Positions 7,096 through 62,538 of a stretch of DNA of 64,000 bases are shown one piece after another. Where the stretch lies: the NCBI GenBank assembly GCA_016213555.1, contig JACRAC010000011.1, positions 8,841 through 72,840 on the forward strand, read 5' to 3'. A program made the position numbers and the translations under genes. Within the stretch, counting starts at the first letter, position 1; every line of letters begins with the position of its first letter. The notes beneath the pieces are model-generated. The model was not told the DNA's origin. It did no database searches and saw nothing but the letters and a program-made list of their open reading frames with translations. This DNA is from Candidatus Aenigmatarchaeota archaeon. Its GTDB lineage: Archaea; Aenigmatarchaeota; Aenigmatarchaeia; GW2011-AR5; JACRAC01.

Positions 7096-7142
7096 ATACT
7101 ACCCACTTATCTTAAGAATATTCTCTGAAAGACTTTAATACG

Positions 7143-33815: not shown

Positions 33816-33826
33816 TTTAACACCGT

Positions 33827-35014: not shown

Positions 35015-35096
35015 CCAATCTCTAGTTCTTCTGTAGAGAGTCTTTTAATAAAAAGGTCAATATCAACACCATATTCTTGAAACACATCTACCATAA

Positions 35097-36167: not shown

Positions 36168-36351
36168 GTTTAATTCACCAATAGCTTGGTTTAGAACATT
36201 TTTGTAAATCCCAGCTACAATAGAATAAGAACCTCAGAAAAGTATATAAATTTGATAACCGGCTTGTAATACATGTATTACATACTATATTTATAATCAA
36301 TCTCAGCAACAAAAAAAGATATATACAACTTGATATAAAAGTTAGTATGGT

Positions 36352-36372
36352 CAAATGAACTAAGTTCATTTG
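36352..36372. repeat. Perfect 21-bp palindrome CAAATGAACT-A-AGTTCATTTG in divergent promoter region (HMG-CoA synthase / DUF95 gene)
   Basis: Read directly from sequence; 10-bp arms, 1-nt centre, ~35 bp upstream of the 36407 ATG. Confidence 0.6.
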
Positions 36373-36406
36373 TATTTTCAAAAAAATCTTATATAAGGTT
36401 TTAGAA

Positions 36407-37770: not shown

Positions 37771-37779
37771 CTAATTCTT

Positions 37780-47287: not shown

Positions 47288-48697
47288 ATGAGAGTATCTA
47301 TATATTACGGAACTTGTTTTGATAGGGATTTTCATAAAGTAACTATAGCTAATGGATTTAGTAAGAATACGGACGTTATAGTTGTAAAAAGATTTGATCA
47401 CAAGCTTGATATTACACATCCAAAATTAAAAGAAATATATATGCATAACGATTTAATATTTACAAAAAAACTATCCGATAAAGTAATACATGACACAGAA
47501 CAGTGGCTAGAAGTACCATTCGTACTATTACTAAAATATTGGTATAATTGGGATAATTCTTTAGAAAAAAACAATAAAGAAATGAGAAAAAGATACGAGG
47601 CTATTTCGAAGTATGTGGTATTTTGGAAAAGCTTCTTCAAAAAATATAGACCAAACGTATTTGTTACTACAATGGAAAGTACGTTCCCTGAAATAGTAAG
47701 CATAGAAGTTGCAAAAAAGCTTGGGATAAAAGTTATCATAGTAAATAGTGGAAGAATAGGAAATACCTTCTTACTTTATAACGATAAATTTTTACCTATA
47801 TATTGGAGAAAAATATCTCAGCACGAGAAGAAGACATATTATGAATCTATAAGAAAAAGATACAGAACAAAGGCAGAACCAGAATCTATGAATCTTAGCA
47901 ATGATGTAAATAATTACGTAGACTTCACTCCTTTTGGAATTAAAAACAAATTGATTGATTTTTTAAGATATAGAAAAAACTACAAAAAAATGCATACTAT
48001 AGATAAATTAAGGACATTAAGTCCATTTCAGCTTTTCAAGAAAGTATCTACTGGGATTTTTAGGAGGACTTATGCGTCTTTCTTTTATGAAAATTTTGAT
48101 TATCAGAAAGAAAAATTCATATTTTTCCCTTTGCATTACACAGATGAGGCTGCCTTGTCTTATCAGGAAGCTTTTTTGGATCAGTTTGAGTTGATAACAA
48201 AAATATCTAAATGCCTTCCTTTAGATGTATTTTTAGTTGTAAAACCTCATCCACATTGGAGATGTATGGATATTCCTATATCAAAAATAAAAGAATTAAA
48301 GTCAAATCCAAGAATTAAATTCATATCACCTGATGTTAATGTTTATAAACTAATTAATTTCAGCAAAGGTGTAGTTACAATAAATTCCACAACTGGTTTT
48401 GAAGCATTGGCTTTGGATAAACCCATAATAACTTTTGGACATGATTTTTATGCTGATCCTAATATAGCTAAAACAATATACGACCTTAATTATCTTCCAG
48501 AAGCAATACGTGATATGATAGACGGGAAGCTAAAAATAAATAATAAGAAACTTTCAGAATTCTTTTCTATTTACTATAAACATCTAATTTTCATAAAAGG
48601 TAGAATGGGTTTGTACGTAGATATAACTGAAGAAGATGGGAGAGCTGTAGCAAAAAACATTGAGGAATATATAACTTCTTCTAAAAAAAGTTTTTAA
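47288..48697 (+). CDS. Capsule-polysaccharide-biosynthesis (KpsC/KpsS-like) family glycosyltransferase, paralog 2
   Basis: IFFPLHYTDEAAL, VVKPHPHWRCMDI, INSTTGFEALALDKPIITFG; collinear with preceding ORF. Confidence 0.5.
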   Translation: MRVSIYYGTCFDRDFHKVTIANGFSKNTDVIVVKRFDHKLDITHPKLKEIYMHNDLIFTKKLSDKVIHDTEQWLEVPFVLLLKYWYNWDNSLEKNNKEMRKRYEAISKYVVFWKSFFKKYRPNVFVTTMESTFPEIVSIEVAKKLGIKVIIVNSGRIGNTFLLYNDKFLPIYWRKISQHEKKTYYESIRKRYRTKAEPESMNLSNDVNNYVDFTPFGIKNKLIDFLRYRKNYKKMHTIDKLRTLSPFQLFKKVSTGIFRRTYASFFYENFDYQKEKFIFFPLHYTDEAALSYQEAFLDQFELITKISKCLPLDVFLVVKPHPHWRCMDIPISKIKELKSNPRIKFISPDVNVYKLINFSKGVVTINSTTGFEALALDKPIITFGHDFYADPNIAKTIYDLNYLPEAIRDMIDGKLKINNKKLSEFFSIYYKHLIFIKGRMGLYVDITEEDGRAVAKNIEEYITSSKKSF

Positions 48698-48728
48698 TAC
48701 ATTCACGCTTATTAAATTATGTGACACA

Positions 48729-49694
48729 ATGGATCTAACTATAGATATGGAAAAAATGAGGCCTTCTGGATTTCATAATTATGTTAAGAAAAGAAGAGAC
48801 GATTTGATAGATAGGGTTAACAAAGGTTCTGATTGGACTCCTGTCAAAGAATGTCCTGTTTGTAAAAATATGTCAAACAACCAAAAATATTTTGATTATA
48901 GAGGTATTGTTTCTTTTGTATGTGATAAATGCGATTGTTTATATGATGATAAGGTACCTGTTTCTGTAGAAGATGTATATGATAATGTAGATTATTTAGA
49001 GCATACGAAAAAAACATCTTATATAAAAGAATATGAATATAGAAAAAATCGTTTTGGATTTGAGAGGGCTAATATAATTGAAAGTTCTCTAGGTAGTCTA
49101 AAAGGTAAAAGAATTCTTGATATTGGGTGTGGAACAGGTCTTTTTCTGGATGTTATGACTAAATTTGGTGCTGTTCCTGATGGATTAGAAATATCAAAGC
49201 CGCTTGCTGAATATACAGCAAAAAGACTTGGTATAAAAGTATTTACTGAAGATTTTATGGGTTTTAGCTCTGATTATAGATATGATGTTATAACAATGTT
49301 TGATCTTATAGAGCATATAAAAAATCCATTGGATATGCTACAACGTGCTAAAGAATTATTGAATAAAGGAGGAATTATTCTTGTATTTACACCAAATTAT
49401 AGATCAATAGCTTTTGAAATCTTAAAAAATAATTCTAATCTCTATATACCTACAGATCATTTATTATTTTTTTCTAAAAAGACCGTAGACTTTTTGGCAA
49501 AGACACTAGGCATGGAACTCTCGATGTATTCAACCAACGGAATGGATGCGTTTGATCTGTTGTCTTTCGATAGGGATATAAATAATATTGATATAAGTAA
49601 CTCTATACTTTTGAATAACATAAATAAAGTCCAAGATACTATTAACATCTCTGGTTATGCAAACCACATGAGATTTATATTAAAAAAGGTGTGA
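48729..49694 (+). CDS. Class I SAM-dependent methyltransferase with N-terminal Cys4 zinc ribbon
   Basis: CPVCKN...CDKCDC ribbon, motif I ILDIGCGTGLF, 321 aa. Confidence 0.75.
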   Translation: MDLTIDMEKMRPSGFHNYVKKRRDDLIDRVNKGSDWTPVKECPVCKNMSNNQKYFDYRGIVSFVCDKCDCLYDDKVPVSVEDVYDNVDYLEHTKKTSYIKEYEYRKNRFGFERANIIESSLGSLKGKRILDIGCGTGLFLDVMTKFGAVPDGLEISKPLAEYTAKRLGIKVFTEDFMGFSSDYRYDVITMFDLIEHIKNPLDMLQRAKELLNKGGIILVFTPNYRSIAFEILKNNSNLYIPTDHLLFFSKKTVDFLAKTLGMELSMYSTNGMDAFDLLSFDRDINNIDISNSILLNNINKVQDTINISGYANHMRFILKKV

Positions 49695-50860
49695 TAATGA
49701 AATCAGACAACTATTCTTATAAAGTTCGTTTAAATGTTAGATTTGGATTTGGTATTTGTAGAAATATAGGAGAATATTTGAAAAAATCTGGTTTAAACAA
49801 CGTAGGATTTATAATAGATAGAGGTGTTTTTTCTTCTGAACCTGTAAAAGCTATGATAAAATCTGCGCAAGACCATTGCTCTGTAAATAAAGTATACGAA
49901 TGTAGCTTAGTCGAACCTACATATGATGAACTAGATGCTATTACAGAAGAATTTAGAAACCAAAAATTCGATGTAATAATAGGAGTAGGAGGAGGAAGTA
50001 TTATGGATACAGCAAAAGGAGTTTGCGCTCTTATTACAAATCCTGGAAAGGGGATTCAATATAGAGGGTTTGATTTATTGAAAAATAATCCAATACATAT
50101 GATAGCTGTTCCTACAACTGCAGGTACTGGAAGTGAAGTTACTCCAAACGCAGTTTTCACAGATAGTAATGAACAGAGAAAATTAGGTATTAATGGAGAT
50201 AAAATGTTTGCTTACATGTCTTTTCTAGATCCAGAACTTACTATGACATGTCCAAAAAGACCTACTGTATCATCTGGCATGGATGCAATTGTACATACTT
50301 TGGAAAGCTTTGGATCTATTGCAGCAACACCATTTTCTAGAATGTATTCTAGAGAAGCTTTTAGGCTACTTTTTAATTCACTACCTAAGTTAGTGGATAA
50401 CATGAATGATAAAGATCTTAGATCAAAAATGCTTTTAGGAAGCCATTATGCTGGAATAGCTTTGTTTAATGCTAGTGCGGGGCCTTCTGGAGCACTATCA
50501 TATCCGTTAGGAGTTTTATTTAAGGTTCCTCACGGAATTGCAGGAGCGGTCTTTTTGCCAAAGGTTCTAAGAAAAAACGTGGAGATGGGGTATTATGGAT
50601 ATTCAGAGTTGTACGATCTTATTGATGGTGCAAACATGTCTCTTTCTGAAAAAGAAAAAGCATTTGCATTTTGTGATGCTTTAGATACTTTATGTAATAA
50701 AGTTGAGATTCCTGACAAGCTTACTGTTTTTGGTGTTACAGAAAATGATATAGATATACTTCATAAACAAACGGTCACTGGGTTGAAGGCTGCAATAGAT
50801 CATAATCCAGTGAAATTTGAAGATAAACATATTAGAGAAATACTAGAAAATATGATCTAA
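49691..50860 (+). CDS. Iron-containing alcohol dehydrogenase family oxidoreductase
   Basis: GGGSIMDTAKG dinucleotide/metal motif, His-rich C-terminal helical domain (HTLESF..., HYAGIAL), 389 aa. Confidence 0.75.
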   Translation: MIMKSDNYSYKVRLNVRFGFGICRNIGEYLKKSGLNNVGFIIDRGVFSSEPVKAMIKSAQDHCSVNKVYECSLVEPTYDELDAITEEFRNQKFDVIIGVGGGSIMDTAKGVCALITNPGKGIQYRGFDLLKNNPIHMIAVPTTAGTGSEVTPNAVFTDSNEQRKLGINGDKMFAYMSFLDPELTMTCPKRPTVSSGMDAIVHTLESFGSIAATPFSRMYSREAFRLLFNSLPKLVDNMNDKDLRSKMLLGSHYAGIALFNASAGPSGALSYPLGVLFKVPHGIAGAVFLPKVLRKNVEMGYYGYSELYDLIDGANMSLSEKEKAFAFCDALDTLCNKVEIPDKLTVFGVTENDIDILHKQTVTGLKAAIDHNPVKFEDKHIREILENMI

Positions 50861-50876
50861 ATTTAGTTGTATACAT

Positions 50877-51977
50877 ATGTTAATCAAAATAGACAATATA
50901 TCTATAGGTAATTCTAATAAATGTTTTGTTATAGCAGAAGCTGGTGTAAATCATAATGGAGATATAGAAAAAGCATACGAATTGATAGATGCTGCAGTGG
51001 ATGCTAATGCAGATGCTGTTAAATTTCAGACATTTAAGACCGAAGAAATAGCAACAATAGATGCAAAACAAGCAACTTATCAAAAAATTAACATGGGAAA
51101 AGAAGAATCCCAATATGAAATGTTAAAACGTCTTGAATTAAGTTATCAGGATTTTAAAAACTTAAAAAAGTACTGTGACAAAAAAAATATACTTTTTATG
51201 TCAGCTCCTCATTCTTGTAAAGAAGATGTAGATTTGGTTGCAGCTCTTTGCCCAGTTATAAAAGTGCCAAGTGGAGATCTGACAAACTTACCTATCTTAA
51301 AATATATGGCTGAAAAAAGAATTCCTATAATTTTGTCAACAGGAATGTCTAACATGGAGGAGATAAAAGAGGCTTTAGACATTATTACACCAATTAATAA
51401 ACAACTTATAATTCTTCATTGTACATCAAACTATCCAACTCCTTTGAATGAAGTTAATTTGAAAGCTATGAAAACAATTGAAAAAGCGTTTGGATTTCCA
51501 GTAGGTTATTCTGACCATACAATGGGTACAGAAATAACAGTTGCCTCTGTTGCAATGGGTGCATGTGTTGTAGAAAAACATTTTACATTAGATAGGAATC
51601 TTCCAGGACCTGATCATAAGGCATCTCTAGAACCAAATGAGCTAAAAAAAATGGTTAATGAAATACGTAATGTAGAAAAGAGACTAACTCAAGGCATCTC
51701 TCCAGAAAAAATATTAAAAGAACTCAATCTTTTAGATTCTATGGGAGATGGTGTCAAAAAACCCCAACTCTCTGAAATTGAGGTTATGAGAGTTGCAAGA
51801 AAGAGTTTAGTAGCTGCCGTAAATATACCTGAATACACAATAATAACAGAAAAAATGCTTGCAATAAAAAGACCTGGTACTGGATTACATCCAAGAAATT
51901 ACTGGAGTCTTATAGGTAAAAAAGCTAAAACAAACATTAAAAAGGATGAAATGCTTGATATTAAAATGATAGCATGA
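50877..51977 (+). CDS. Nonulosonic acid synthase (NeuB/LegI/PseI family) with C-terminal SAF domain
   Basis: CFVIAEAGVNHNGDIEKA...DAVKFQTF TIM-barrel NeuB signature; SAF antifreeze-like C-terminal domain; 366 aa. Confidence 0.85.
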   Translation: MLIKIDNISIGNSNKCFVIAEAGVNHNGDIEKAYELIDAAVDANADAVKFQTFKTEEIATIDAKQATYQKINMGKEESQYEMLKRLELSYQDFKNLKKYCDKKNILFMSAPHSCKEDVDLVAALCPVIKVPSGDLTNLPILKYMAEKRIPIILSTGMSNMEEIKEALDIITPINKQLIILHCTSNYPTPLNEVNLKAMKTIEKAFGFPVGYSDHTMGTEITVASVAMGACVVEKHFTLDRNLPGPDHKASLEPNELKKMVNEIRNVEKRLTQGISPEKILKELNLLDSMGDGVKKPQLSEIEVMRVARKSLVAAVNIPEYTIITEKMLAIKRPGTGLHPRNYWSLIGKKAKTNIKKDEMLDIKMIA

Positions 51978-52927
51978 AGAAAAATATAAAAATAATTAGA
52001 AGTGCTGTAGGCAGTATGCCTTCATGGGGTCTTATAAAAGAACTCACCAAAAACAATGTAGATATTGTTGGAATTGATAGCAGTCCAATTTCTTTTGGGT
52101 TATATTTGTTGAAAAAAAGTTATGTCGTGCCAAAAGGTAATGACCCAAATTTTATAAATTCTCTCATAAATATAGTTAAAAAAGAAACCCCGGATGCAAT
52201 TATTTCAGGACCAGAAGAAGAAATACTTAATATTTCTAAAAATAAAAGTTTACTGGAAAATAGTGGTATGCTTGTTTTATGTCCAGATTTTGAATCAGTT
52301 GAGATATGTGCAAATAAAAGAAAAACTTACAAATTCTTTAAAAATAATAATATTCCTACACCAGAAATATTTGATGAAGAAAAAAGAGTTAAATTTCCAT
52401 GCGTAGTAAAACCAATTTTTGGAAGAGGGGGTGCAGGTGTATATGTAGCTAATAACCAGGAAGAACTAAGATATTATTTGTCTAAATCAAAAGATTTTAT
52501 TATACAAGAATATGTTGCTGGCACTGAATATACTGTTGATGTTCTTGCAGATAGAGATGGTAATTCATTATCAATTGTTCCTAGAATAAGACTTGGTATA
52601 GAGTCTGGAGTTTCTGTAAAAGGTAAAACCGTATACGACAAAAAAATAATAAATTATGTACAACTTATAGTAAAAAAATTGAAATTATTTGGACCTTCTT
52701 GTATACAGTGCATAAAAAGTTCTGACAGTCTTAAGTTCATAGAAATTAATACACGATTTGGAGGGGGGTCAATACTTTCAATGAAAGCAGATCCTACCAT
52801 AGTACAAAATTTAATAAGAATAATAAGAGGAGAGACTCCTAGAAAAAATAGAACATTCAAAAGAAATCTTATCATGTTACGATATTATTCTGAGATGTTT
52901 TTACAGGAAAAAGATATTAAGAAGTGA
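51974..52927 (+). CDS. ATP-grasp domain ligase
   Basis: 317 aa with ATP-grasp segments (KPIFGRGGAGVYV, IIQEYVAGTEYTVDV, IEINTRFGGG). Confidence 0.7.
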   Translation: MKKNIKIIRSAVGSMPSWGLIKELTKNNVDIVGIDSSPISFGLYLLKKSYVVPKGNDPNFINSLINIVKKETPDAIISGPEEEILNISKNKSLLENSGMLVLCPDFESVEICANKRKTYKFFKNNNIPTPEIFDEEKRVKFPCVVKPIFGRGGAGVYVANNQEELRYYLSKSKDFIIQEYVAGTEYTVDVLADRDGNSLSIVPRIRLGIESGVSVKGKTVYDKKIINYVQLIVKKLKLFGPSCIQCIKSSDSLKFIEINTRFGGGSILSMKADPTIVQNLIRIIRGETPRKNRTFKRNLIMLRYYSEMFLQEKDIKK

Positions 52928-52931
52928 TTTT

Positions 52932-53585
52932 ATGAAAGCTGTTATATTTGATCTAGATAATACTTTATACGATCACTCAAAATATCTTTTAGGGGCTTTT
53001 AGAGATGTTTCCAAGTATCTAAGTCATAAACATTCTTTAAATCAAAGACATGTTTATAAAGTTCTAGTGAGCATATGGAAAAAAAATACTAGTATGTATC
53101 CTAGAGTCTTTAATGATCTTTTAGATCAGCTGTCAATAAAAGAAGATGTAATAAATCTTGTCAATATTTTTAATGCACATGTGTGTAATATTGCTCCTTA
53201 TAAAGATGTAAGATTATTAATAAAAAAATTAAAGAAACAAAAATTCCTTTTAGGGCTTATTACAGATGGTACGGTTGATAGACAAAAAAGAAAGCTAAGC
53301 GCCTTAAAATTACAAAATTCTTTTGATGTAATTATTTTCACGAAAGAAATTGGACATCCAAAGCCTTCTCACAAACCTTTTCTACAAGCTCTATATAAGC
53401 TTGGTGTGAAACCTGAAAATACCTTTTATATTGGAGATAATCCAATAGTAGATTTTGAAGGTTCTAAAAAAGTAGGTATGCATACAATAAGACTCCTTAA
53501 AGGTGAGTTTAGGAAACTTAAAAAAAATAAATATATAGATTATGAAGTAAAGGAGATTATAGATATAATGAAAGTAATCATGTGA
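52932..53585 (+). CDS. HAD-superfamily hydrolase
   Basis: Motif I VIFDLDNTLYD, motif III/IV K...GDNPIVD; 217 aa. Confidence 0.7.
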   Translation: MKAVIFDLDNTLYDHSKYLLGAFRDVSKYLSHKHSLNQRHVYKVLVSIWKKNTSMYPRVFNDLLDQLSIKEDVINLVNIFNAHVCNIAPYKDVRLLIKKLKKQKFLLGLITDGTVDRQKRKLSALKLQNSFDVIIFTKEIGHPKPSHKPFLQALYKLGVKPENTFYIGDNPIVDFEGSKKVGMHTIRLLKGEFRKLKKNKYIDYEVKEIIDIMKVIM

Positions 53586-54595
53586 TTTTTGTGGATTTGA
53601 AAGACAAAAAAATACTAGTTACTGGTGGAGCAGGGTTTATAGGTAGTCATATATGTGAAAAACTTGTATCTTTAGGATCTTCTGTAACTATATTAGATGA
53701 TCTTTCAACTGGAAAAGAAAAAAATATTGCTTCAATAAAAGATAAAATAAAATTTATTAAAGGTAGCGTAGAAGATTATAGAACAGTTCTAAATTCTACA
53801 AAGAAAATTGATTACGTCATTCATCAGGCTTTTCCATACGGAAGGTCTGGAATGGGTCTAGATGAACAATATACTGAGGCAGGAGTTATAGGTACTTTTA
53901 ATGTCCTAAAAGCTTCTGTGATAAATGGTGTGAAAAAGGTTGTTAATGCTTCATCTGTAGCTGCTTATGGTATTCCAAAATATACTCCTTTAGATGAAAA
54001 ACACCCTACAAACCCTTTTCTTCCATATGGTGCAACAAAGATCGTAGGAGAATTGTATTGTAAAACATTTTCAAATCTTTATACTATAGATACAATCAGT
54101 CTTAGGTATTTTTATGTTTATGGTGCAAGATACGCGCAGTTTGATCATAGTGCTATGGTAAATTTTCTTATAAGATCTGTTAGAGGAGAAGATCTTATTA
54201 TATATGGTAATGGTTCTCAAATAAGAGACTATACATATATAGATGATATAGTAAATGGCACACTTCTGGCACTTTTAAAGGAGAATTCCTTAGGAACTGT
54301 ATACAATATAAGCGGTGGTGACGGAATAACTATTCTTGATTTGGCCAAAAAAATAAAAAAGTTGGTAAATAAAAAATCTTCTATAAAATTCGCTGGAAAT
54401 GCAGAATATAGGTTCAGTGATAAGTACAATAAAATTCCTATAGGACTTACCACTAAAGTTGGGGGTAAATGGATAGATGAGAGAAATTATATAGGTAACA
54501 TATCTTTGGCTAAGAAAGAACTTGGTTACAAACCCAAGATTAAAATAGATGATGGTATACAAAGAACTGCGAACTGGTTAAAGTCTATTATGTGA
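53582..54595 (+). CDS. NAD-dependent nucleotide-sugar epimerase/dehydratase (SDR)
   Basis: VTGGAGFIGSH, catalytic YGATK, 337 aa. Confidence 0.8.
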   Translation: MIFVDLKDKKILVTGGAGFIGSHICEKLVSLGSSVTILDDLSTGKEKNIASIKDKIKFIKGSVEDYRTVLNSTKKIDYVIHQAFPYGRSGMGLDEQYTEAGVIGTFNVLKASVINGVKKVVNASSVAAYGIPKYTPLDEKHPTNPFLPYGATKIVGELYCKTFSNLYTIDTISLRYFYVYGARYAQFDHSAMVNFLIRSVRGEDLIIYGNGSQIRDYTYIDDIVNGTLLALLKENSLGTVYNISGGDGITILDLAKKIKKLVNKKSSIKFAGNAEYRFSDKYNKIPIGLTTKVGGKWIDERNYIGNISLAKKELGYKPKIKIDDGIQRTANWLKSIM

Positions 54596-54599
54596 TTAA

Positions 54600-55766
54600 A
54601 TGAACAAAAAAATAGCTGTTGTAACAGGAACAAGGGCTGAATATGGATATCTCAAGCCATTGATAGAGAAAATACTTGGAAGAAAAGGACTAACTCTTCT
54701 TCTATATGTTACAGGAATGCATATTGTTAAAGAATACGGAAATACTGTAAATGAAATAGTTAAGGATGGCTTTGAAATAAGGAAGATTATAGATATGGAT
54801 GTTAAAGAAAATAATACAGTATTTGATACTGCCATATCCATATCAAATGGTGTTAAAGGATTTACAAAAGCTTTTCAAGAAGATTCTCCGGATATGGTAG
54901 TTGTCTTTGGAGACAGAACAGAACCATTTTCAGCTGCTGTAGCAGCAACTACTGTAAATATACCTGTTGCGCATATAAACGGTGGTGATGTAGGGTTTGG
55001 AGATTTAGATAATAATTTAAGACATGCTATTACTAAACTTTCGCATCTACACTTTACTGCAAGTCATCAAAGTATGTGTAGGGTTTTAAAATTAGGAGAA
55101 GAAAAATGGAGGGTTTTTAATGCAGGAGCATTGTCTTTAGACTCTATATTGAATAAAAAATTGTCTAGCAGAAAAGATATATTAGATAAATACTCTATAC
55201 CTGATAGAAAAATAATTCTTGTTGTCTTTCATCCTGTGACTACAGAATATCAGGATTCATCAAATCAAATGAACATAGTTATGCAATCTGTAAAAGAGAT
55301 TGCAGAAAAACATAATAGTGAAATAGTCACAATATATCCTAATGCTTATCCAGGAGGTTATGAAATAATAAAGGTAATTAAAAACTTCTCAAAAAAATCG
55401 AATAAAATACATGTTTTTGAAAATATATCACATCTGGACTATTTATCAATGTTATCTATTTCTTCGGTTTTTCTAGGTAATTCAAGTAGTGGAATAATAG
55501 AGGCGCCATCTTTAGGAATACCTTATGTTTGTATAGCTAACAGACAGTATGGGAGAGAGAGAGGTTATAATGTTATAGATGTTGAATGTAAAAAAAGTTA
55601 CATAAATAAAGCTGTAGAAAAGGCTATGTTTAATAAAAAATTTATCAAAATAGTTGAAAAGAGAAAAAGCCCTTATGGTAACGGAAAAGCTAGCGAATTT
55701 ATTGTTGATATACTATCAAGAATAAATATTGATAAGAGGCTTTTGCAGAAGAAAATTACATATTAG
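54600..55766 (+). CDS. UDP-N-acetylglucosamine 2-epimerase (hydrolysing), NeuC/LegG-like
   Basis: KIAVVTGTRAEYG N-terminus, GDRTEPF, HINGGD motifs of the hydrolysing 2-epimerase family; 388 aa. Confidence 0.85.
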   Translation: MNKKIAVVTGTRAEYGYLKPLIEKILGRKGLTLLLYVTGMHIVKEYGNTVNEIVKDGFEIRKIIDMDVKENNTVFDTAISISNGVKGFTKAFQEDSPDMVVVFGDRTEPFSAAVAATTVNIPVAHINGGDVGFGDLDNNLRHAITKLSHLHFTASHQSMCRVLKLGEEKWRVFNAGALSLDSILNKKLSSRKDILDKYSIPDRKIILVVFHPVTTEYQDSSNQMNIVMQSVKEIAEKHNSEIVTIYPNAYPGGYEIIKVIKNFSKKSNKIHVFENISHLDYLSMLSISSVFLGNSSSGIIEAPSLGIPYVCIANRQYGRERGYNVIDVECKKSYINKAVEKAMFNKKFIKIVEKRKSPYGNGKASEFIVDILSRINIDKRLLQKKITY

Positions 55767-55806
55767 ATTTATACAAAATTTCTATATTTAAGATTATATT
55801 GTAAAT

Positions 55807-56472
55807 ATGATATTTATGAAAATACTTATTATAGCCCCTCATCCAGATGATGAAGTATTAGGATGTGGAGCTACTATTGCAAAATATACAAAACTAGGAC
55901 ACGACGTGTACACATGTATTGTTACAAAAGCATACACACCTGATTGGTCTGAGGAATTTATTAAAAATAGACCAAAAGAAGTTGAAAAATCAAATAAGAT
56001 TTTGGGTATAAAAAAGACTTATTTTTTAGACTTCCCAACTGCAAAGTTAGATACAGTACCACAAAGAGATATAAACAAGGCTATTTCAGATGTTGTTTCT
56101 GAAGTGTCTCCTAACACAGTTTTTATACCACATAAGGGGGACTTGAATAGAGATCATAGACTAGTTTTTGAATGTGCCTTGGTAGCCTTAAGACCTAATA
56201 ATTCAAAAGTCGAAAAAATACTATCCTTCGAAGTTTTATCAGAAACAGATTGGGGACATCCTATAGAAGGATTTAATCCAAATTTATATGTTGATGTATC
56301 AAAATCATTTAAGAAAAAAATAGACGCCATGAAAGTATATGGAACAGAATTAAAAGAATATCCACACCCTAGATCTATAGAAGCTATAGAATCTTTAGCT
56401 AAAAAAAGAGGATCTGAAGCATGTCTTAATCTTGCAGAATCCTTTTTTATTATAAGAGAAGTCTCAAAGTGA
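55807..56472 (+). CDS. PIG-L/LmbE-family N-deacetylase
   Basis: ILIIAPHPDDEVLGCG zinc-binding motif; 221 aa. Confidence 0.75.
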   Translation: MIFMKILIIAPHPDDEVLGCGATIAKYTKLGHDVYTCIVTKAYTPDWSEEFIKNRPKEVEKSNKILGIKKTYFLDFPTAKLDTVPQRDINKAISDVVSEVSPNTVFIPHKGDLNRDHRLVFECALVALRPNNSKVEKILSFEVLSETDWGHPIEGFNPNLYVDVSKSFKKKIDAMKVYGTELKEYPHPRSIEAIESLAKKRGSEACLNLAESFFIIREVSK

Positions 56473-56876
56473 TTATTATGGAAAGATTTGATAAATGGAA
56501 AGAGCCTACTATAAAAGATGGAAAACTGACCAAATGGAATTGGATGGTCCAAAACAAAAAAAACTTGAAACTTGGTAAAAAAACAGATATAGGAGCTTTT
56601 ACCTATATTAATGCAAAATACGGGGTTTATATAGAGGACTTCGTTGAGTTAGGTTCTCATTGTTCTATTTACTCTGAATCTACAATAGACGGAAAAAGAG
56701 GACCTGTCAAAATTAAGAAAAATGCTAAAATAGGATCACACTCTGTTATTATGCCAGGTGTAACAATAGGAGAAAATTCTGTTGTGGGGGCGATGAGTTT
56801 TGTAAATAAAAGCATCCCTGATAATTCTATTGCATTTGGGATACCTGCTAAGGTGGTAAAAATTGTTAAACAATAA
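56469..56876 (+). CDS. Hexapeptide-repeat (left-handed beta-helix) acetyltransferase, LegH/PglD-like
   Basis: Tandem [LIV]-G-x4 hexads (IGSHSVIMPGVTIGENSVVGAMSFV); 135 aa. Confidence 0.7.
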   Translation: MIIMERFDKWKEPTIKDGKLTKWNWMVQNKKNLKLGKKTDIGAFTYINAKYGVYIEDFVELGSHCSIYSESTIDGKRGPVKIKKNAKIGSHSVIMPGVTIGENSVVGAMSFVNKSIPDNSIAFGIPAKVVKIVKQ

Positions 56877-58269
56877 TTATAAAAATCTTTTAGTTGATAA
56901 GGACAAAACCATAAGAGAAGTTATGAGAACTATAGATCTAAACGGTCTTTCCACAGCATTTCTTGTAGATAAAGAAAATAAATTATTTGCTATAATAACA
57001 GACGGTGATATACGTTCTGCTATTCTACACGGTGAAAAACTTGATACACCAGCAATGAAAATAGCAAATAAAACACCAGTAACAATAAATGAAAAAGAAA
57101 ATAGCAAAGAGGGAATTAAAAATTTCTTGAGAGATTCTAAAGTATCTGAAAAAATCCCTAAAAACAGCTCTTTGAAAGTACCAGTCCTTGATGATGATCG
57201 AAAGGTTATAGATCTTTTGTTTATATATTCAGGAGAAAAAATCCCTACTATAACAAAAAAACATAACAAAAAAGAAAATATTAAAAAAGTCCTTGTTGTT
57301 GGTGGAGCTGGTTATCTAGGGTCTTGTGTTTGTAAGAAACTTTTAGAAAGAGGATACAGTGTAAAAGTACTTGATAATTTAATGTTTGGAGATCATGGGA
57401 TAAAAAAAGTGTATGGCAATGAAAACTTTGAGTTTCTTAATGGAGATGTTAGAAATATATCTACAATAGTAGATGCTATAAAAGACGTCCAGGCTGTAAT
57501 TGATCTTGCAGCTATTGTTGGAGATCCTGCATGTGCACATAATCCTAAAAAAACTATAGAAATAAACAATTTTTCTACTAAGGTGTTGGCTGATATATGT
57601 AAATATAGCCAGATAAATCGTTTCATATTTGCTTCAACATGTAGCGTTTATGGAGCTTCAACAGACGAGAGATTGTTGAATGAAGACTCTGAATTAAATC
57701 CAGTTTCTTTGTACGCCGATATGAAACTTGCTACAGAAAAAATTCTGATGGATATATCTGATGAAAATTTCTCACCTACAATATTTAGGATGCCTACTCT
57801 CTTTGGTGCGTCTGATAGAATGAGATTTGATCTAGTTATTAATAGATTAACTGCTCAAGCTGCTAATAAAGAGAATATTACAGTCTTTGGAGGAGATCAG
57901 TGGAGACCTTTTATTCATGTAGAGGATGCTGCAGAGTTTTACGTGAAAGCCTTAGAATTACCTATAGAAACTATAGGCAATAAAATACTTAATGTTGGCA
58001 GTAGTGTTATGAATTATAAGATAATTGAAATTGCAAACATAATTAAAAAAATAACTTCAGCAAATATAGATATAAACCAAGCTGCTATAGATAAAAGAAA
58101 TTATAAAGTTGATTTTTCGTTATCAGAACGACTTTTCGGTATTAAACCTAGATTTGATATTGAAAAAGGAGTTAAGCAAATGCTCAATATAGATAAAAAA
58201 GTAATTGCTGATTATAAATCTGAGCTTTATAATAATGTTGATATGCAGAAGAAAGAGAGCCCAGAATAG
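56863..58269 (+). CDS. CBS-pair fused to SDR nucleotide-sugar 4,6-dehydratase/epimerase (LegB/CapD-like)
   Basis: N-terminal two CBS motifs (~120 aa) then VVGGAGYLGS Rossmann and YADMK (YxxxK); 468 aa. Confidence 0.75.
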   Translation: MLNNNYKNLLVDKDKTIREVMRTIDLNGLSTAFLVDKENKLFAIITDGDIRSAILHGEKLDTPAMKIANKTPVTINEKENSKEGIKNFLRDSKVSEKIPKNSSLKVPVLDDDRKVIDLLFIYSGEKIPTITKKHNKKENIKKVLVVGGAGYLGSCVCKKLLERGYSVKVLDNLMFGDHGIKKVYGNENFEFLNGDVRNISTIVDAIKDVQAVIDLAAIVGDPACAHNPKKTIEINNFSTKVLADICKYSQINRFIFASTCSVYGASTDERLLNEDSELNPVSLYADMKLATEKILMDISDENFSPTIFRMPTLFGASDRMRFDLVINRLTAQAANKENITVFGGDQWRPFIHVEDAAEFYVKALELPIETIGNKILNVGSSVMNYKIIEIANIIKKITSANIDINQAAIDKRNYKVDFSLSERLFGIKPRFDIEKGVKQMLNIDKKVIADYKSELYNNVDMQKKESPE

Positions 58270-59391
58270 TTATATAGACTCGTTAACTTTTTCTACTACA
58301 AATTCTTTTTCCTCATCTGTCATTGTTGGGTATATAGGTAAAGTTAAAACTCTTTTAGAAATATCTTCTGTGAGTTTCAATTTATCTTTATATTTTAGTA
58401 CATTTTTATAAAAATGTGAAAGATGAACTGGAGGGAAGTATACTTTACTCATGATACCATTTTTGTCTAAATTTTGTTGTAGTTTATCTCTTTGTTCTTC
58501 TGACTGTAATCTTATTGTATACATTTGATAAACATTTCTTCCGCCGCTTATTTCTACAGGAACACTGATCTCTTTTTGTAACTTTTTGTTATAAAATTTT
58601 GCAATTTCTCTTCTTTTTTCTATTATCTTCTCTAATTTTCTCATTTGACTTATTCCCAAAGCAGCAACTATTGTAGGTATACGGAAGTTATATCCTAGTG
58701 TTATATAGTCCATAGGAACGTTTGTATCAAAATAATTCTTTGTTTCAAGTCTTCCATGAGATCTAATAAGTTTAAGTTTTTCATAAATAGATCTATTTTT
58801 TGTTATTACAGCACCGCCTTCGCCTGTTGTTATTATTTTGTTTCCACAGAAACTCAGTACTGCAGAATCTCCAAAACTTCCAGCAAATTTACTATCTAAC
58901 TTTGATCCAAGAGCCTCTGCAGCGTCTTCTATTAATATGATATTTTTTTCTTCTGCTATTTTTTTAATTTCTTTTATCTTTGATGCAGTAGACCCGCCAT
59001 AATGTATAGGCATTATAGCCTTTGTGTTTTTAGTTATCTTTTCAGATATTGAGTCTGGATCGAGTGCATAAGTGTCTTCCTCTATATCTGCAAAAACAGG
59101 ATTTGCACCTACAAATTTAACAGCATTTGCGGTTGCTATAAATGTGAATGAAGGAACTATAACATCATCACCATGTTTTATTTCATGAGCTACTAATGAT
59201 GCGTGCAATGCACTTGTACCAGAATTAAATGTTAATACATAAGGGATGCCTAAATAGTCTGATATCATTTTTTCAAATTGTTGTATTTCAGGACCTAATG
59301 TCCAATACATATCTCTTTCTACGATCTTTCTGACTTCTTCCACGTCTTCATTATCTTTACAAACTTTGAATAACGGTATTTTCCAGTTCAT
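58270..59391 (-). CDS. DegT/DnrJ/EryC1-family PLP-dependent sugar aminotransferase (LegC/PseC-like)
   Basis: SGTSALH, PLP-Lys region LSFCGNKIITTGEGG; 373 aa. Confidence 0.85.
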   Translation of the reverse strand: MNWKIPLFKVCKDNEDVEEVRKIVERDMYWTLGPEIQQFEKMISDYLGIPYVLTFNSGTSALHASLVAHEIKHGDDVIVPSFTFIATANAVKFVGANPVFADIEEDTYALDPDSISEKITKNTKAIMPIHYGGSTASKIKEIKKIAEEKNIILIEDAAEALGSKLDSKFAGSFGDSAVLSFCGNKIITTGEGGAVITKNRSIYEKLKLIRSHGRLETKNYFDTNVPMDYITLGYNFRIPTIVAALGISQMRKLEKIIEKRREIAKFYNKKLQKEISVPVEISGGRNVYQMYTIRLQSEEQRDKLQQNLDKNGIMSKVYFPPVHLSHFYKNVLKYKDKLKLTEDISKRVLTLPIYPTMTDEEKEFVVEKVNESI

Positions 59392-59395
59392 ATAA

Positions 59396-60025
59396 TCACT
59401 TTATTAATCCCATTCTCTTCTTTAAAATTTGCTCAACTAGGAAGAAATCAGTAGGATCATCTATCTCTATATTCTGCTCTTTATCAATAATAACTTCTCC
59501 TAATTTATCTCCAAATAATGTACCTTTTCTTATTAAATCAGCGTTTATGACATAAACATTACCATCGTCATAGAAAAATCCTTTTATTTCTTGCCTAGGT
59601 TTTGTACATGTTCCGTATTTATTAAATTTACAATAAAATCCTGTAGCTAAAGAACCAACTTTTGTTTTCTTGAACTCTTCTACACATTTATCTATTAAAT
59701 TATCATCCCTTATGGGTGATGTAGGTTGTAAAAGTACTACCACGGCTGCATTTACTTTTGTAAGAACATGCTGTATTGCTGGAAGTGTTGGAGAATTATC
59801 TTCGGCTAGCTCTTTAGGTCTTTTCACAACTTCTGCTCCTGCGTTTTTTGCAACTTCTGATATTTCTTCATCTTCTGTAGAAACAATTATTCTTTTTATG
59901 TATTTTGATTTTTTGGCTGCTTCTATAGACCATACTAACAAAGGTTTACCAGCTATCATTTTTATATTCTTTCTTGGAATACCTTTGCTACCTCCTCTAG
60001 CTGGTATAACTGCAATTATTTCCAT
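59396..60025 (-). CDS. CMP-nonulosonic acid synthetase (acylneuraminate cytidylyltransferase, NeuA/LegF-like)
   Basis: IAVIPARGGSKGIPRKN P-loop-like cytidylyltransferase signature; 209 aa single-domain form. Confidence 0.8.
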   Translation of the reverse strand: MEIIAVIPARGGSKGIPRKNIKMIAGKPLLVWSIEAAKKSKYIKRIIVSTEDEEISEVAKNAGAEVVKRPKELAEDNSPTLPAIQHVLTKVNAAVVVLLQPTSPIRDDNLIDKCVEEFKKTKVGSLATGFYCKFNKYGTCTKPRQEIKGFFYDDGNVYVINADLIRKGTLFGDKLGEVIIDKEQNIEIDDPTDFFLVEQILKKRMGLIK

Positions 60026-60029
60026 TTTA

Positions 60030-61241
60030 TCATTCCTTCAATCCAGTAGAAATAGCATTTGAAATCTTATTTATATGTTCGTCAGTCATATTCAAGCTTA
60101 TACCTATAGCTAATGCTCTGTTTAGTATTTCTTGTGATCTAGTCCATAACTTTTCTGGATTTTTATAATCTTCAGATATTTTAGGTAGCATATGATCCCA
60201 TGTTCCTGCAAAATGCCACTTAAATGCACTAGGTAAATTCTTAGTCTCAATCCCAACCTTTAATAATTCCTTTACAACATCTTTTGCAATTTTTGAATCT
60301 TTGACAAAGAAAATTAAACTATCTCCGGCTTCTTCTGTATCATTATGTTTTCTATATTCTATACCAGATATTTTATCTAATTCTTTCTTTAACCTTTTCT
60401 TATTTTCTCTTTGCTTATTTACTATCACATCCAATTTTTTTAGTTGTGCTACACCTATAGCTCCTTGAAGTTCACACATTCTGTAGTTAAATCCTGCTAT
60501 GGATCTCGTATCGTCAGCTCTACTAAATTTAGTATTATGCTCATGACCATGATCAGCAAACCAGTCTGCTTTATCTGCAAACTCCTTTTTGTCTGATACA
60601 ACCATCCCACCTTCCCCTGTTGTCAATACTTTTCCATAATCAAAACTAAATACTCCCATGTCGGCTATTGTGCCCAGCATCTTTCCTCTGTATTTAGCTC
60701 CAAGTGCTTGGCAAGAATCTTCAAGTACTAATATGCTATGTTTTTTTGCTATTTCAGTTATTTTTTTCATATCTGCAGCAGATCCATGCATATGAACAGG
60801 TACTATTATTTTTGTTTTTTTAGTTATCCTATTTTCTATATCATTTGGATCCATGTTAATAGAAAAATCAATATCAGTGAATACAGGCTTTGCTCCACAT
60901 GCAATTATCGCTTCAGCAGTTGCAACAAATGTATATGAAGACGTTATTACTTCATCTCCAGGTTTAATTCCCATTGCCATTAAAGCTGTGTGCAATGCTG
61001 CAGTACCTGATGTTACTGCATGTGAATATTTTACAGATAGTTTGTTAGAAAAGTTGGTTTCAAATTCTTTAACTTTCCATGAATTTCCTCTAAGTTTGTC
61101 AAATCCGTATCTGTAAAGAATACCTTTATTGTCAAAAATAGAATTTATTTCTTTTCTTTCTTCATCTCCTATAAGTTCAAACCCAGGCATACTCATTAAT
61201 ATGCAGAAAGAGATTAAAACCCTTTCAAGTGTATCTATCAT
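60030..61241 (-). CDS. Second DegT-family PLP-dependent sugar aminotransferase (probably serving the CDP-sugar branch)
   Basis: PLP-Lys retained (VFSFDYGKVLTTGEGG), so an aminotransferase rather than an RfbH/E1-type dehydrase; 403 aa. Confidence 0.8.
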   Translation of the reverse strand: MIDTLERVLISFCILMSMPGFELIGDEERKEINSIFDNKGILYRYGFDKLRGNSWKVKEFETNFSNKLSVKYSHAVTSGTAALHTALMAMGIKPGDEVITSSYTFVATAEAIIACGAKPVFTDIDFSINMDPNDIENRITKKTKIIVPVHMHGSAADMKKITEIAKKHSILVLEDSCQALGAKYRGKMLGTIADMGVFSFDYGKVLTTGEGGMVVSDKKEFADKADWFADHGHEHNTKFSRADDTRSIAGFNYRMCELQGAIGVAQLKKLDVIVNKQRENKKRLKKELDKISGIEYRKHNDTEEAGDSLIFFVKDSKIAKDVVKELLKVGIETKNLPSAFKWHFAGTWDHMLPKISEDYKNPEKLWTRSQEILNRALAIGISLNMTDEHINKISNAISTGLKE

Positions 61242-62097
61242 CTATAGATTTTCTATTTTTCATATCTTCAAAGGCTTGATCCATAGATTTAATTGAAATT
61301 CCTAATTTTCTTATTTTATCTGATCTTAACCCAGCTTTTAGTGGCCTTGGTGCAATATTTTTGAAATATTTTGTAGGCTTTCCTATTATTAAAGTATCGT
61401 TTAATCCAAATGACTTTGCTATATTTCTTGCAAAGTTGTCTCTAGCTATCCACTCTTCACCAACAACGTTGTAGATACCCTCACAGTCTTGATTCAACAT
61501 CTTTTCTATAGTTGACACAAGATCTTTTACATATGTAGGATTTCCAAACTGATCATTAGGTACAAAAAGCTCCTTTCCTGACGATAGTGTATCAAAAACT
61601 CTGTAAAAAAAGTTTTTTCTTGCCATTTCCCAACCAAAGATCCCTGTAGTCCTTATTATTAAGTGTTTTATACCAGAATTTATTATTTTTCTTTCACAAG
61701 ATACCTTTAGCTCGCCATAATAGTTTATAGGATTTGTTTTATCTTTTTCTGAATAAGGTCCTGAATTACCGTCAAATACGTAATCTGAAGAAAAGAACAC
61801 TATTTTAGACTTTTTTGACAAACATTTTATTATATTTTCTATAATACCGACATTTGTTTTAAATGCCAGCTCTTTTTCAATTTCACATTTATTTACATCT
61901 GGCATTGCAGCTGTAACAATAACTATTTCTGGAGATAGTTTATTTATTAGTTTTTTTGTTTCTTCAAAACATGTAGCATCAAGTTCTATAAAACTATTGA
62001 TTTTTTGACTCTTGTATGTAAATTTATAATTATCTTTTTTTTGTCTGTAGAATTCGTAACCAACTAATCCAGAACCACCTATAACTAGATTCGTCAT
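61225..62097 (-). CDS. dTDP-4-dehydrorhamnose reductase (RmlD)-family NDP-sugar 4-ketoreductase
   Basis: VIGGSGLVG Rossmann, YGELK (YxxxK), 290 aa RmlD-like length. Confidence 0.7.
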   Translation of the reverse strand: MTNLVIGGSGLVGYEFYRQKKDNYKFTYKSQKINSFIELDATCFEETKKLINKLSPEIVIVTAAMPDVNKCEIEKELAFKTNVGIIENIIKCLSKKSKIVFFSSDYVFDGNSGPYSEKDKTNPINYYGELKVSCERKIINSGIKHLIIRTTGIFGWEMARKNFFYRVFDTLSSGKELFVPNDQFGNPTYVKDLVSTIEKMLNQDCEGIYNVVGEEWIARDNFARNIAKSFGLNDTLIIGKPTKYFKNIAPRPLKAGLRSDKIRKLGISIKSMDQAFEDMKNRKSIDDRYT

Positions 62098-62103
62098 TAT
62101 AAT

Positions 62104-62538
62104 CTACCATTTATAGGGTATGTTATTTTTATAAGGATCTTGTTTGACAGATTCTGAAGGATCGTGTTCTATGTCTGCAATATTTAATAACATATTAGTA
62201 CTTTTGCTAAGTCCTGTGAATCCTACCCATATCATAGGAGGAATTGTAAGCCTTTGATAGTTCTCTATTGATAGAATAATTTCATTTGTTTCTTTATAGG
62301 TTTTTGAGCCCTTTCTATCGTCGTACAAAACAAACTTTACTTCACCACAAGGTACTATTAAGTTCAATGTCATTTTTTTATGCATTTTCCACGCTTTTAC
62401 ACAATCTTTTTTAACTATAGAGAAATAGGCTTCTCCAAATTTGGTAAATGTAGAATCACTTTTTTTAAATGCATGCATAACATCTCCTAGTTCTCCAGGT
62501 AATATTTTAAGAGGTGTTAAAACTACTCCTTCAATCAT
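62104..62538 (-). CDS. Cupin-fold NDP-hexulose isomerase/epimerase (FdtA/WxcM-like 3,4-ketoisomerase or RmlC-like)
   Basis: 144-aa cupin with GELGDVMHAF...FGEAYF...; size and context match FdtA-like ketoisomerases. Confidence 0.5.
   Translation of the reverse strand: MIEGVVLTPLKILPGELGDVMHAFKKSDSTFTKFGEAYFSIVKKDCVKAWKMHKKMTLNLIVPCGEVKFVLYDDRKGSKTYKETNEIILSIENYQRLTIPPMIWVGFTGLSKSTNMLLNIADIEHDPSESVKQDPYKNNIPYKW

Follow-up and report, generated by a model that had tools for sequence, protein, structure and literature searches.

Which sugar does a tiny-celled DPANN archaeon of the Aenigmatarchaeota build with a compact set of nonulosonic acid genes, and do its enzymes follow the routes already described? 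The genes lie in a stretch of 64,000 nucleotides (the window; positions 8,841 to 72,840 of contig JACRAC010000011.1, Candidatus Aenigmatarchaeota archaeon), for which an original prediction, made from the DNA letters, had proposed a legionaminic acid-type biosynthesis island with extra tailoring enzymes at 48729-60025. The locus is almost certainly a nonulosonate island. We lean towards the view that the genes of 45899-63643 form a surface-glycan island for the synthesis, activation and transfer of a legionaminic-like nonulosonic acid that is further tailored. The sugar type would be one already known; what appears to be non-standard is the first step of the pathway and an extra oxidase/aminotransferase pair, which may give a product with perhaps three amino groups.

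Gene content and extent of the island

Translation of the open reading frames (ORFs) and Pfam matches bear out all 12 genes proposed for 48729-60025, together with their domain assignments. The boundaries were drawn too narrowly, and the island extends from about 45899 to at least 63643. The plus-strand operon begins at 45899 with two Capsule_synth genes, and the minus-strand operon runs on through 60030-63643 with genes for an aminotransferase resembling KdnA, an RmlD-like protein, a cupin and CDP-glucose 4,6-dehydratase. The genes, with lengths in amino acids (aa) where given, are as follows.

45899..47287, plus strand: Capsule_synth (KpsS/KpsC-like) protein 1 (PF05159, 37 bits; weak BFO_1060-family match)
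47288..48697, plus strand: Capsule_synth protein 2 (PF05159, 57 bits; NF046086, 41 bits against a cut-off of 200; weak KpsS match)
48729..49694, plus strand: class I S-adenosylmethionine (SAM) methyltransferase (Methyltransf_23, 76 bits; N-terminal CxxC...CxxC, Zn-ribbon-like)
49691..50860, plus strand: iron-type alcohol dehydrogenase (Fe-ADH; Fe-ADH and ADH_Fe_C domains)
50877..51977, plus strand: NeuB-family nonulosonate synthase with SAF domain (TIGR03569, 447 bits, above the cut-off of 399.65)
51974..52927, plus strand: ATP-grasp carboxylate-amine ligase of the PRK12767 'CPS-like' group (ATP-grasp_3, 80 bits)
52932..53585, plus strand: HAD-IA phosphatase of TIGR02253/CTE7 type (HAD_2, 113 bits; motif DLDNT)
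53582..54595, plus strand: 4-epimerase-like extended short-chain dehydrogenase/reductase (SDR), 337 aa (best PDB matches GalE 4ZRM, 144 bits, and WbgU)
54600..55766, plus strand: NeuC/LegG-type hydrolysing NDP-HexNAc 2-epimerase, Epimerase_2 (TIGR03568, 405 bits, above the cut-off of 235.9)
55807..56472, plus strand: PIG-L/LmbE-family N-deacetylase (PF02585, 93 bits; motif HPDDE)
56469..56876, plus strand: short left-handed beta-helix acyltransferase, 135 aa (Hexapep, 58 bits)
56863..58269, plus strand: fusion of a CBS pair and an extended SDR, hereafter CBS-SDR (CBS and Epimerase domains)
58270..59391, minus strand: DegT-family sugar aminotransferase 1, DegT1 (PF01041, 376 bits; pyridoxal phosphate (PLP) lysine present, GNK)
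59396..60025, minus strand: CMP-nonulosonate synthetase, NeuA/LegF-like, 209 aa (CTP_transf_3, 104.5 bits)
60030..61190, minus strand: KdnA-like aminotransferase, DegT2 (top PDB match 5K8B, 295 bits)
61225..62097, minus strand: RmlD-like 4-reductase of a neighbouring CDP-deoxyhexose branch (RmlD_sub_bind, 181 bits; TIGR01214, 177 bits, below the cut-off of 224)
62104..62538, minus strand: cupin of the dTDP-sugar isomerase/3,5-epimerase family (PF00908, 37 bits)
62531..63643, minus strand: CDP-glucose 4,6-dehydratase (TIGR02622, 481 bits, above the cut-off of 278; TSDK motif)

Neighbouring genes are spaced by -14 to +40 nt in two convergent operons, and subsets of the gene order reappear in unrelated contigs of independent metagenomes. 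Thus, the grouping is not due to chance. The loci used for comparison are contigs labelled L003 to L061; the Logan contig L002 comes from the same organism as the window and hence is not independent. The G+C content is flat across the window (0.28-0.33), so there is no compositional sign of foreign origin. A sigma-70 promoter/terminator scan gave counts at or below shuffled expectation, a sigma-70 model being uninformative for an archaeon.

Class of nonulosonic acid

The locus is likely to belong to the NeuC-dependent, 5,7-diamino class of nonulosonates, with a legionaminic-like product. The NeuB protein passes the NeuB_NnaB model (TIGR03569) and fails the PseI model (269 bits against 340), and its PDB scores are 203 bits for SpsE, 183 for N. 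meningitidis NeuB and 168 for PseI. The 2-epimerase passes TIGR03568 and fails the model for the non-hydrolysing WecB (123 bits against 210). Its and NeuB's passing scores do not separate the neuraminic (Neu) from the legionaminic (Leg) pathway, since neither TIGR03568 nor TIGR03569 does so. The nearest NeuB relatives (59-67% identical) are from Aenigmarchaeota, Woesearchaeota and bacteria of the Candidate Phyla Radiation (CPR), and the order NeuB-NeuC-short hexapeptide transferase-DegT is kept in eight loci (L003, L004, L005, L006, L010, L059, L060, L061). The hexapeptide transferase is the best-conserved core gene (61-72% identical in L003-L006 and L010). A neighbour-joining tree was built from 57 NeuB sequences, with gene context in place of named Neu, Leg or pseudaminic (Pse) references as the label. 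In it the window NeuB falls inside a NeuC/DegT-linked clade, apart from the pseudaminic-like clades that have a dehydratase with a TDK motif and no NeuC. These cut-offs, the conserved order and the tree, read with the definition of the Leg pathway summarised for Halorubrum sp. PV6 (PMC6137143), are the grounds for the assignment. A strict, 9-deoxy legionaminic acid has slightly less than an even chance.

The same pathway, LegB/C/H/G/I/F of C. jejuni, L. pneumophila and Halorubrum sp. PV6 (PMC6137143), shares its logic and the protein families of five of its six steps with the island (DegT aminotransferase, left-handed beta-helix acyltransferase, NeuC-type hydrolysing 2-epimerase, NeuB-type synthase, CTP_transf_3 CMP-transferase), and as in Halorubrum the tailoring genes are embedded in the cluster. 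The island differs in its first enzyme, a CBS-fused SDR lacking the dehydratase acid/base pair; in an acyltransferase without the PglD-type N-terminal domain; in the addition of the KdnA-like/Fe-ADH pair, the ATP-grasp/HAD/PIG-L cassette and the methyltransferase; and in failing the LegB, LegC and PseF equivalog models. Weighing against a legionaminic-like assignment, none of the models for LegC, LegH, LegF and PseF is passed. DegT1 reaches 282 bits against 420 for LegC (TIGR04181) and 314 against 423.5 for PseC, and NeuA reaches 124 bits against 205.7 for PseF and 50-74 bits for KdsB models. DegT1 orthologs (55-64% identical) adjoin CBS-SDR in L056 and L057, and the one in L003 carries an N-terminal CBS domain.

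PseC and PseF, sub-threshold as they are, remain the best-scoring NCBIfam models for DegT1 and NeuA, as would be expected of a pseudaminic-acid locus; a locus of this kind, or of Kdo type, is nevertheless extremely improbable. PseI fails while NeuB_NnaB passes, a NeuC-type hydrolysing epimerase is present, the NeuB lies outside the TDK-only clades, and a scan of every ORF in 43484-63643 identified neither PseG (GT28-like) nor PseH (GNAT). The KDO8P/DAHP-type match of NeuB reaches only 30 bits, so that grouping with KDO8P or Kdo synthases, named beforehand as the outcome that would overturn the assignment, was not observed. The preference for a Neu/Leg-type over a pseudaminic locus in the original prediction is upheld by the model cut-offs and by the NeuB tree.

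A sialic acid locus of N-acetylneuraminic acid (Neu5Ac) type, starting from UDP-GlcNAc, is improbable, if less so. The hexapeptide protein would then be a NeuD-like O-acetyltransferase, CBS-SDR and DegT1 would make an unrelated 4-amino sugar, and Fe-ADH with the KdnA-like enzyme would yield 9-amino-Neu5Ac. TIGR03569 and TIGR03568, both passed, are equivalog models of the Neu5Ac pathway, and the hexapeptide protein corresponds to the C-terminal half of NeuD/PglD only (TIGR03570 positions 116-202, 68 bits against a cut-off of 161). The NeuB also has Asp at the N. meningitidis E134 position, as in archaeal and eukaryotic synthases (PMC8208679). Against this reading, at least six loci (L005, L010, L047, L059-L061) have DegT and an SDR that could form a keto sugar in one uninterrupted run with NeuB-NeuC-hexapeptide. 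DegT and SDR together with the core are the accepted hallmark by which the Leg route is told from the Neu route (PMC6137143), and in the window the genes show translational coupling.

The Asp variant lies in the NeuB motif PSGD, at the position of Glu134, and the adjacent HAD phosphatase makes it of interest, as the variant has been linked speculatively to phosphorylated substrates (PMC8208679). We set it aside as a marker of phosphosugar use, the proposal being itself speculation in that paper.

The proposed first enzyme

Conversion of the nucleotide sugar to a 4-keto intermediate is very probably carried out by CBS-SDR, judging by its family and gene neighbourhood. In the operons NeuA-NeuB-NeuC-hexapeptide-DegT-[CBS-SDR] of L059-L061 it directly follows DegT, a slot that holds a TDK dehydratase in L005, L010 and L047; thus, CBS-SDR belongs to the pathway. 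It also stands beside DegT and near NeuB/NeuA throughout L003 and L056-L061. No PglF/PseB-type (TDK) dehydratase was identified in the whole window, where the CDP-glucose 4,6-dehydratase is the sole canonical sugar dehydratase.

The original prediction had called this protein a LegB-like 4,6-dehydratase, a reading that its score of 91 bits against the LegB model (TIGR04180; cut-off 475), its catalytic strand and its nearest structure do not support. In an alignment with the SDRs of relatives, the strand reads S-T-C-S rather than TDE, TDK or TSE, whereas the canonical dehydratases in the same alignment have T-D-K (L004, L005) or T-S-D-K (the CDP-glucose dehydratase of the window). The Cys of the S-T-C-S-V-Y-G motif and the Ser after it are invariant in 120 of 120 homologs. 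The best PDB sequence match is Cj1427 (165 bits, 37% identity), and a Foldseek search with the AlphaFold model (predicted local distance difference test, pLDDT, 88.5) also placed Cj1427 first (6VO6, identified by its PDB entry title; target-normalised TM-score (TMt) 0.92, root-mean-square deviation 1.7 A). Behind it in the fold search come 4-epimerases, and the identity to true dehydratases is no higher than 19-22%.

Cj1427 is a GDP-heptose C4-dehydrogenase that produces a 4-keto sugar without dehydration (PMC10680097), and its tightly bound NADH is recycled by alpha-ketoglutarate. Among solved structures it is the nearest to the SDR domain, with which it shares the segment 'RMRxDLxxN' and a Ser where dehydratases have Glu or Lys. 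CBS-SDR differs in its N-terminal CBS pair, in the invariant Cys (T-C-S) where Cj1427 has Asn (T-N-S), and in being partnered with an aminotransferase; its likely substrate is an NDP-HexNAc.

Could CBS-SDR nonetheless be a true NDP-GlcNAc 4,6-dehydratase? The locus would then encode the canonical 9-deoxy legionaminic pathway, in which Fe-ADH, HAD, ATP-grasp, PIG-L and methyltransferase only remodel N-acyl groups and DegT2 serves CDP-deoxyhexose synthesis. This account, which we regard as rather unlikely, gains from the exact operon slot shared with the TDK dehydratases. CBS-type and TDK-type contexts moreover interleave among close NeuBs of one clade (L059 and L004, for example, are sisters in the tree), which favours the same product from both SDR types and would make CBS-SDR an unconventional dehydratase. 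Its invariant Cys, at the Asp position of dehydratases, could in that case be the missing acid/base. These points weigh against a non-dehydrating first step. The absence of a TDE/TDK/TSE pair, the LegB score and the nearest characterised relatives, a non-dehydrating C4-dehydrogenase and 4-epimerases, speak for one.

A CBS pair is fused to DegT in L003 (12696-14204) and L006 (13686-15128), instead of or as well as to the SDR. That the CBS module shifts from one to the other of the pathway's first two enzymes is as expected for a regulatory, possibly feedback-sensing, domain. A search with CBS-SDR returned at least 7,941 proteins at E <= 1e-20. The proteins appear to form a very large family that would replace the textbook first enzyme of the pathway in DPANN and CPR lineages.

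The 337-aa SDR of the plus-strand operon scores 143 bits against the LegB model and has the strand NASSVAAYG (S-S-V-A in the alignment), which lacks the acid/base pair. By its matches it is a variable, 4-epimerase-like addition to the locus; L003 and L047 have no counterpart at the same position.

A proposed oxidase/aminotransferase pair

Just outside 48729-60025, and overlooked by the original prediction along with its tie to Fe-ADH and NeuA, is the gene for DegT2. Its 295-bit match to KdnA, the transaminase that forms Kdo8N (8-amino-3,8-dideoxy-octulosonate), compares with 197 bits for the next PDB entry. The two are 43% identical over 333 aa, with the PLP lysine aligned and the alignment starting at KdnA residue 1, and homologs 51-55% identical are named KdnA (8-amino-3,8-dideoxy-octulosonate transaminase) in JGI annotation. 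The longest DegT2 ORF starts at 61241, 17 codons upstream of the supported start. The true start is probably Met18, at 61190, because of the KdnA alignment and an identical 386-aa NCBI protein from a Candidatus Aenigmarchaeota metagenome-assembled genome.

KdnA works with KdnB, an oxidase of the Fe-ADH family (PDB entry names; PMC5125639). L057 and the Micrarchaeota locus L056 have Fe-ADH, KdnA-like aminotransferase, NeuA and NeuB in an unbroken row; in L003 and the window the KdnA-like gene adjoins NeuA, and orthologous Fe-ADH genes lie just upstream of NeuB. Fe-ADH orthologs are 40-50% identical in L003 and in L056 and L057, where they stand directly beside the KdnA-like gene and NeuA. Thus, the KdnA-like gene adjoins NeuA in all four loci that carry it (the window, L003, L056, L057), and CBS-SDR is present in the same four. 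Among loci with a TDK-dehydratase core, none encodes Fe-ADH, and L004 has only a weak, 41% DegT2-like match. Softer evidence comes from three further contigs, paired by equal length (44518, 29991 and 7764), that are in both the CBS-SDR and the KdnA-like match lists. The KdnA-like search returned at least 5,802 proteins at E <= 1e-40.

The co-occurrence of KdnA-like, Fe-ADH and NeuA genes in four loci suggests a third amination of the nonulosonate by the Fe-ADH/KdnA-like pair, to which we give an even chance. Fe-ADH, which the original prediction had listed among the additional genes, would then be the oxidase partner of the transaminase. The logic would be that of the Shewanella oneidensis KdnA/KdnB system (5K8B/5K8C), in which a hydroxyl of the free ulosonic acid is oxidised and then transaminated. 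DegT2 resembles KdnA over almost its whole chain, and in relatives an Fe-ADH-family enzyme and a CMP-ulosonate synthetase are likewise encoded beside it. The systems differ in that the window Fe-ADH is outside the KdnB subgroup, in the presumed substrate, a nine-carbon nonulosonate, and in the host, an archaeon whose window has no lipopolysaccharide or Kdo genes. If CBS-SDR were a C4-dehydrogenase that spares the C6 hydroxyl, a 9-hydroxy nonulosonate would result and the pair could make 5,7,9-triamino-3,5,7,9-tetradeoxy-nonulosonic acid, with its third amine acylated by ATP-grasp/HAD. We put this full structure forward as doubtful, and amination at C8 of a 9-deoxy sugar as a weaker variant. 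We know of no description of a 5,7,9-triamino nonulosonic acid class.

Several observations weigh against a third amination. Fe-ADH scores 109 bits against KdnB (5K8C), lower than against methanol and lactaldehyde dehydrogenases, and could instead make an acyl precursor. The CBS-SDR loci L058-L061 have no Fe-ADH/KdnA-like pair within the available flanks. In the window and L003, DegT2 abuts the CDP-deoxyhexose genes (RmlD-like, cupin, CDP-glucose 4,6-dehydratase), as the canonical legionaminic account would have it, and could aminate CDP-4-keto-6-deoxyglucose; in L003 the same four-gene block as in the window comes after NeuA-DegT2, with a nucleotidyltransferase in addition. That account is harder to square with the specific likeness of DegT2 to KdnA, and with L056 and L057, which have no CDP genes and yet keep DegT2 with Fe-ADH and NeuA.

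Two of the CBS-SDR loci that lack the pair have other genes beside NeuA/NeuB: Aminotran_3 and adh_short in L060 (1-2070), and GFO_IDH_MocA and adh_short in L061 (4357-6198). These oxidoreductase and aminotransferase genes may be analogous tailoring pairs.

A putative acyl-tailoring cassette and the methyltransferase

The ATP-grasp and HAD genes, often with PIG-L, are a recurrent cassette in Leg- and Pse-type clusters. They are adjacent in the window, L047, L048 and L061, and have NeuA between them in L019. The contexts of four loci are as follows.

L047: NeuB-ATP-grasp-HAD-NeuC-methyltransferase-PIG-L-unknown-DegT-TDK
L048: Pse-type surroundings, including Maf-like and PseG-like genes
L019 (Nanoarchaeota): radical SAM-FkbM methyltransferase-ATP-grasp-NeuA-HAD-NeuB-formyltransferase-PIG-L
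L028 (Tepidibacillus): NeuB-ATP-grasp-inositol-monophosphatase-family phosphatase-PIG-L

In L028 a non-homologous phosphatase of the inositol-monophosphatase family thus stands in for HAD. The recurrence of a phosphatase of either family beside the ligase implies a phosphorylated intermediate. The ligase scores 211 bits against NF009405 (cut-off 390), with weaker matches to PylC, MfnD, CofF and archaeal Ddl-like proteins, all of them carboxylate-amine ligases. A precedent for an ATP-dependent amidoligase followed by an HAD phosphatase is Cj1438C/Cj1435 of the C. jejuni capsule (PMC11800397), where the phosphatase clears the phosphorylated amide partner; the likeness to ATP-grasp/HAD would be one of function. 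The HAD protein scores 85 bits against PH1655 and 48 bits against N-acylneuraminate-9-phosphatase (NANP). It is of the same HAD-IA subgroup as NANP, but on these scores a Neu5Ac-9-phosphate phosphatase is a minor possibility.

The PIG-L protein matches diacetylchitobiose deacetylase and BshB in the PDB, and PIG-L genes are also found beside NeuB/NeuC in L008, L019, L024, L028, L043, L047 and L056. In L056 a formyltransferase is encoded no more than one gene away, as would suit removal of the acetyl group and subsequent re-acylation. Such a sequence, already proposed in the original prediction, is plausible: ATP-grasp with HAD, and in most such loci PIG-L, recur next to NeuB in other lineages. 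In the literature we found no report linking an ATP-grasp protein and a deacetylase to a nonulosonic acid, and papers on Geobacillus and T. forsythia make no mention of such genes.

The methyltransferase has a 58% identical ortholog in the same slot of L003. A methyltransferase-NeuB fusion (P0082) was considered as a Rosetta-stone link and rejected, its methyltransferase domain being only 24% identical (E 5e-4) and not orthologous. Related clusters very often include genes for B12-binding radical SAM proteins (L004, L005, L057, L059, L060), and in L057 (2839-5469) one of these is fused to NeuB in a protein of 876 aa. Their frequency hints at C-methylated or otherwise radical-modified nonulosonates in CPR and DPANN organisms.

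Candidate transferases

The two Capsule_synth proteins at the start of the plus-strand operon, which the original prediction had passed over, are candidate CMP-nonulosonate transferases and would be part of the island. They are tandem paralogs (31% identical). The pair is kept in L003, where the ortholog of protein 1 is 55% identical and in the same position, and single copies stand beside the CBS-SDR operons of L058 and L061. The BFO_1060 family includes genetically proven transferases of Pse/Leg derivatives in T. forsythia (PMC5420450). Like BFO_1060/Tanf_01245 of Tannerella forsythia and KpsS/KpsC, both window proteins have a Capsule_synth (PF05159) domain and an HP motif ('KPHPH' in protein 1) and adjoin nonulosonate genes. 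They differ from BFO_1060/Tanf_01245 in being tandem paralogs and in scoring 41 and 25 bits against the 200-bit cut-off of the BFO_1060 model (NF046086). The KpsS model gives 26 bits against 600, so that the Pfam domain alone was passed.

Predicted pathway

Homology, motifs and synteny are the basis on which all substrates, the product and the sequence of tailoring reactions are predicted here. CBS-SDR would oxidise C4 of NDP-GlcNAc, DegT1 would place an amine on C4, and the short hexapeptide transferase would N-acylate it. The NeuC-type enzyme would then remove the nucleotide and epimerise C2, and NeuB would condense the hexose with phosphoenolpyruvate to a 5,7-diamino nonulosonate, which NeuA would convert to the CMP-sugar. 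In tailoring, Fe-ADH and the KdnA-like transaminase would probably turn a nonulosonate hydroxyl into a third amino group (compare KdnB/KdnA at C8 of Kdo). PIG-L would take off an N-acetyl group, the ATP-grasp ligase would then add a different acyl or aminoacyl group, for which a phosphorylated partner may be the source, and the HAD phosphatase would afterwards dephosphorylate that partner. The methyltransferase would methylate the product. Transfer of the CMP-activated nonulosonate would fall to the two KpsS/BFO_1060-like proteins.

Other genes in the window

Divergent from the main operon is one further SDR.

44918..45832, minus strand: GalE-like extended SDR, 304 aa (197 bits for Pfam Epimerase; 167 bits for the GalE model, whose cut-off is 262)

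Its active-site strand (NSGGAVVG) is without the dehydratase acid/base pair, and the protein perhaps serves the acceptor glycan as a hexose/HexNAc 4-epimerase.

A second glycosylation cluster is found about 40 kb upstream, at window positions 438-1187 and 3622-9637. It includes the following genes.

438-1187: NTP_transferase
3622-4719: GT4
4703-5812, minus strand: 369-aa ORF with no Pfam match, its start overlapping the stop of the STT3/AglB ORF by 4 nt
5809-7095, minus strand: ORF with STT3/AglB N-terminal domain
7143-7805: GT2

The 369-aa ORF could represent the C-terminal part of AglB, either split off or encoded separately, and the cluster as a whole might be N-glycosylation machinery that uses the nonulosonate.

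An AT-rich spacer of 326 nt (33088-33413) is located upstream of cdc6/orc1 (31834-33087), which adjoins the gene for the PolD small subunit. The spacer has perfect inverted repeats of 13-14 nt (ATTTCTTTTGGAA / TTCCAAAAGAAAT and CCTATATTTCTTTT / AAAAGAAATATAGG) and looks like a replication origin with elements resembling origin recognition boxes (ORB-like). It is followed by a mevalonate block (33414-39096) of a 133-aa ORF, thiolase, an HMG-CoA synthase-like gene and HMG-CoA reductase, which together with a geranylgeranyl-reductase-like flavoprotein (29546-30727) are ordinary archaeal lipid genes. An archaeal host is borne out by Cdc6/Orc1, PolD small subunit, PolB, CDC48, STT3/AglB and mevalonate-pathway genes in the window, and by the Aenigmarchaeota label of the NCBI protein identical to DegT2.

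Biological implications

As decorations of the cell surface, nonulosonic acids govern how a cell is recognised by hosts, phages and partner cells. Because the DPANN archaea and CPR bacteria spend their lives attached to host cells, their surface sugars probably matter for host contact. In the Archaea, experimental support exists for one nonulosonate pathway only, that of Halorubrum (PMC6137143). The rarity of these sugars in archaea, as originally predicted, holds for characterised cases. It does not hold in sequence space: the NeuB clade and CBS-SDR are abundant in DPANN and CPR metagenomes, and neither the CBS-SDR nor the KdnA-like family is rare.

The genetics of unusual N-acyl groups was a major open challenge as of 2017 (PMC5378307), and the portable ATP-grasp/phosphatase/deacetylase cassette may account for such groups. 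If the Fe-ADH/KdnA-like pair acts as proposed, an oxidase/transaminase pair like that of Kdo8N would have been recruited to nine-carbon sugars, and an archaeal or CPR 'sialic acid' would carry a third amino group.

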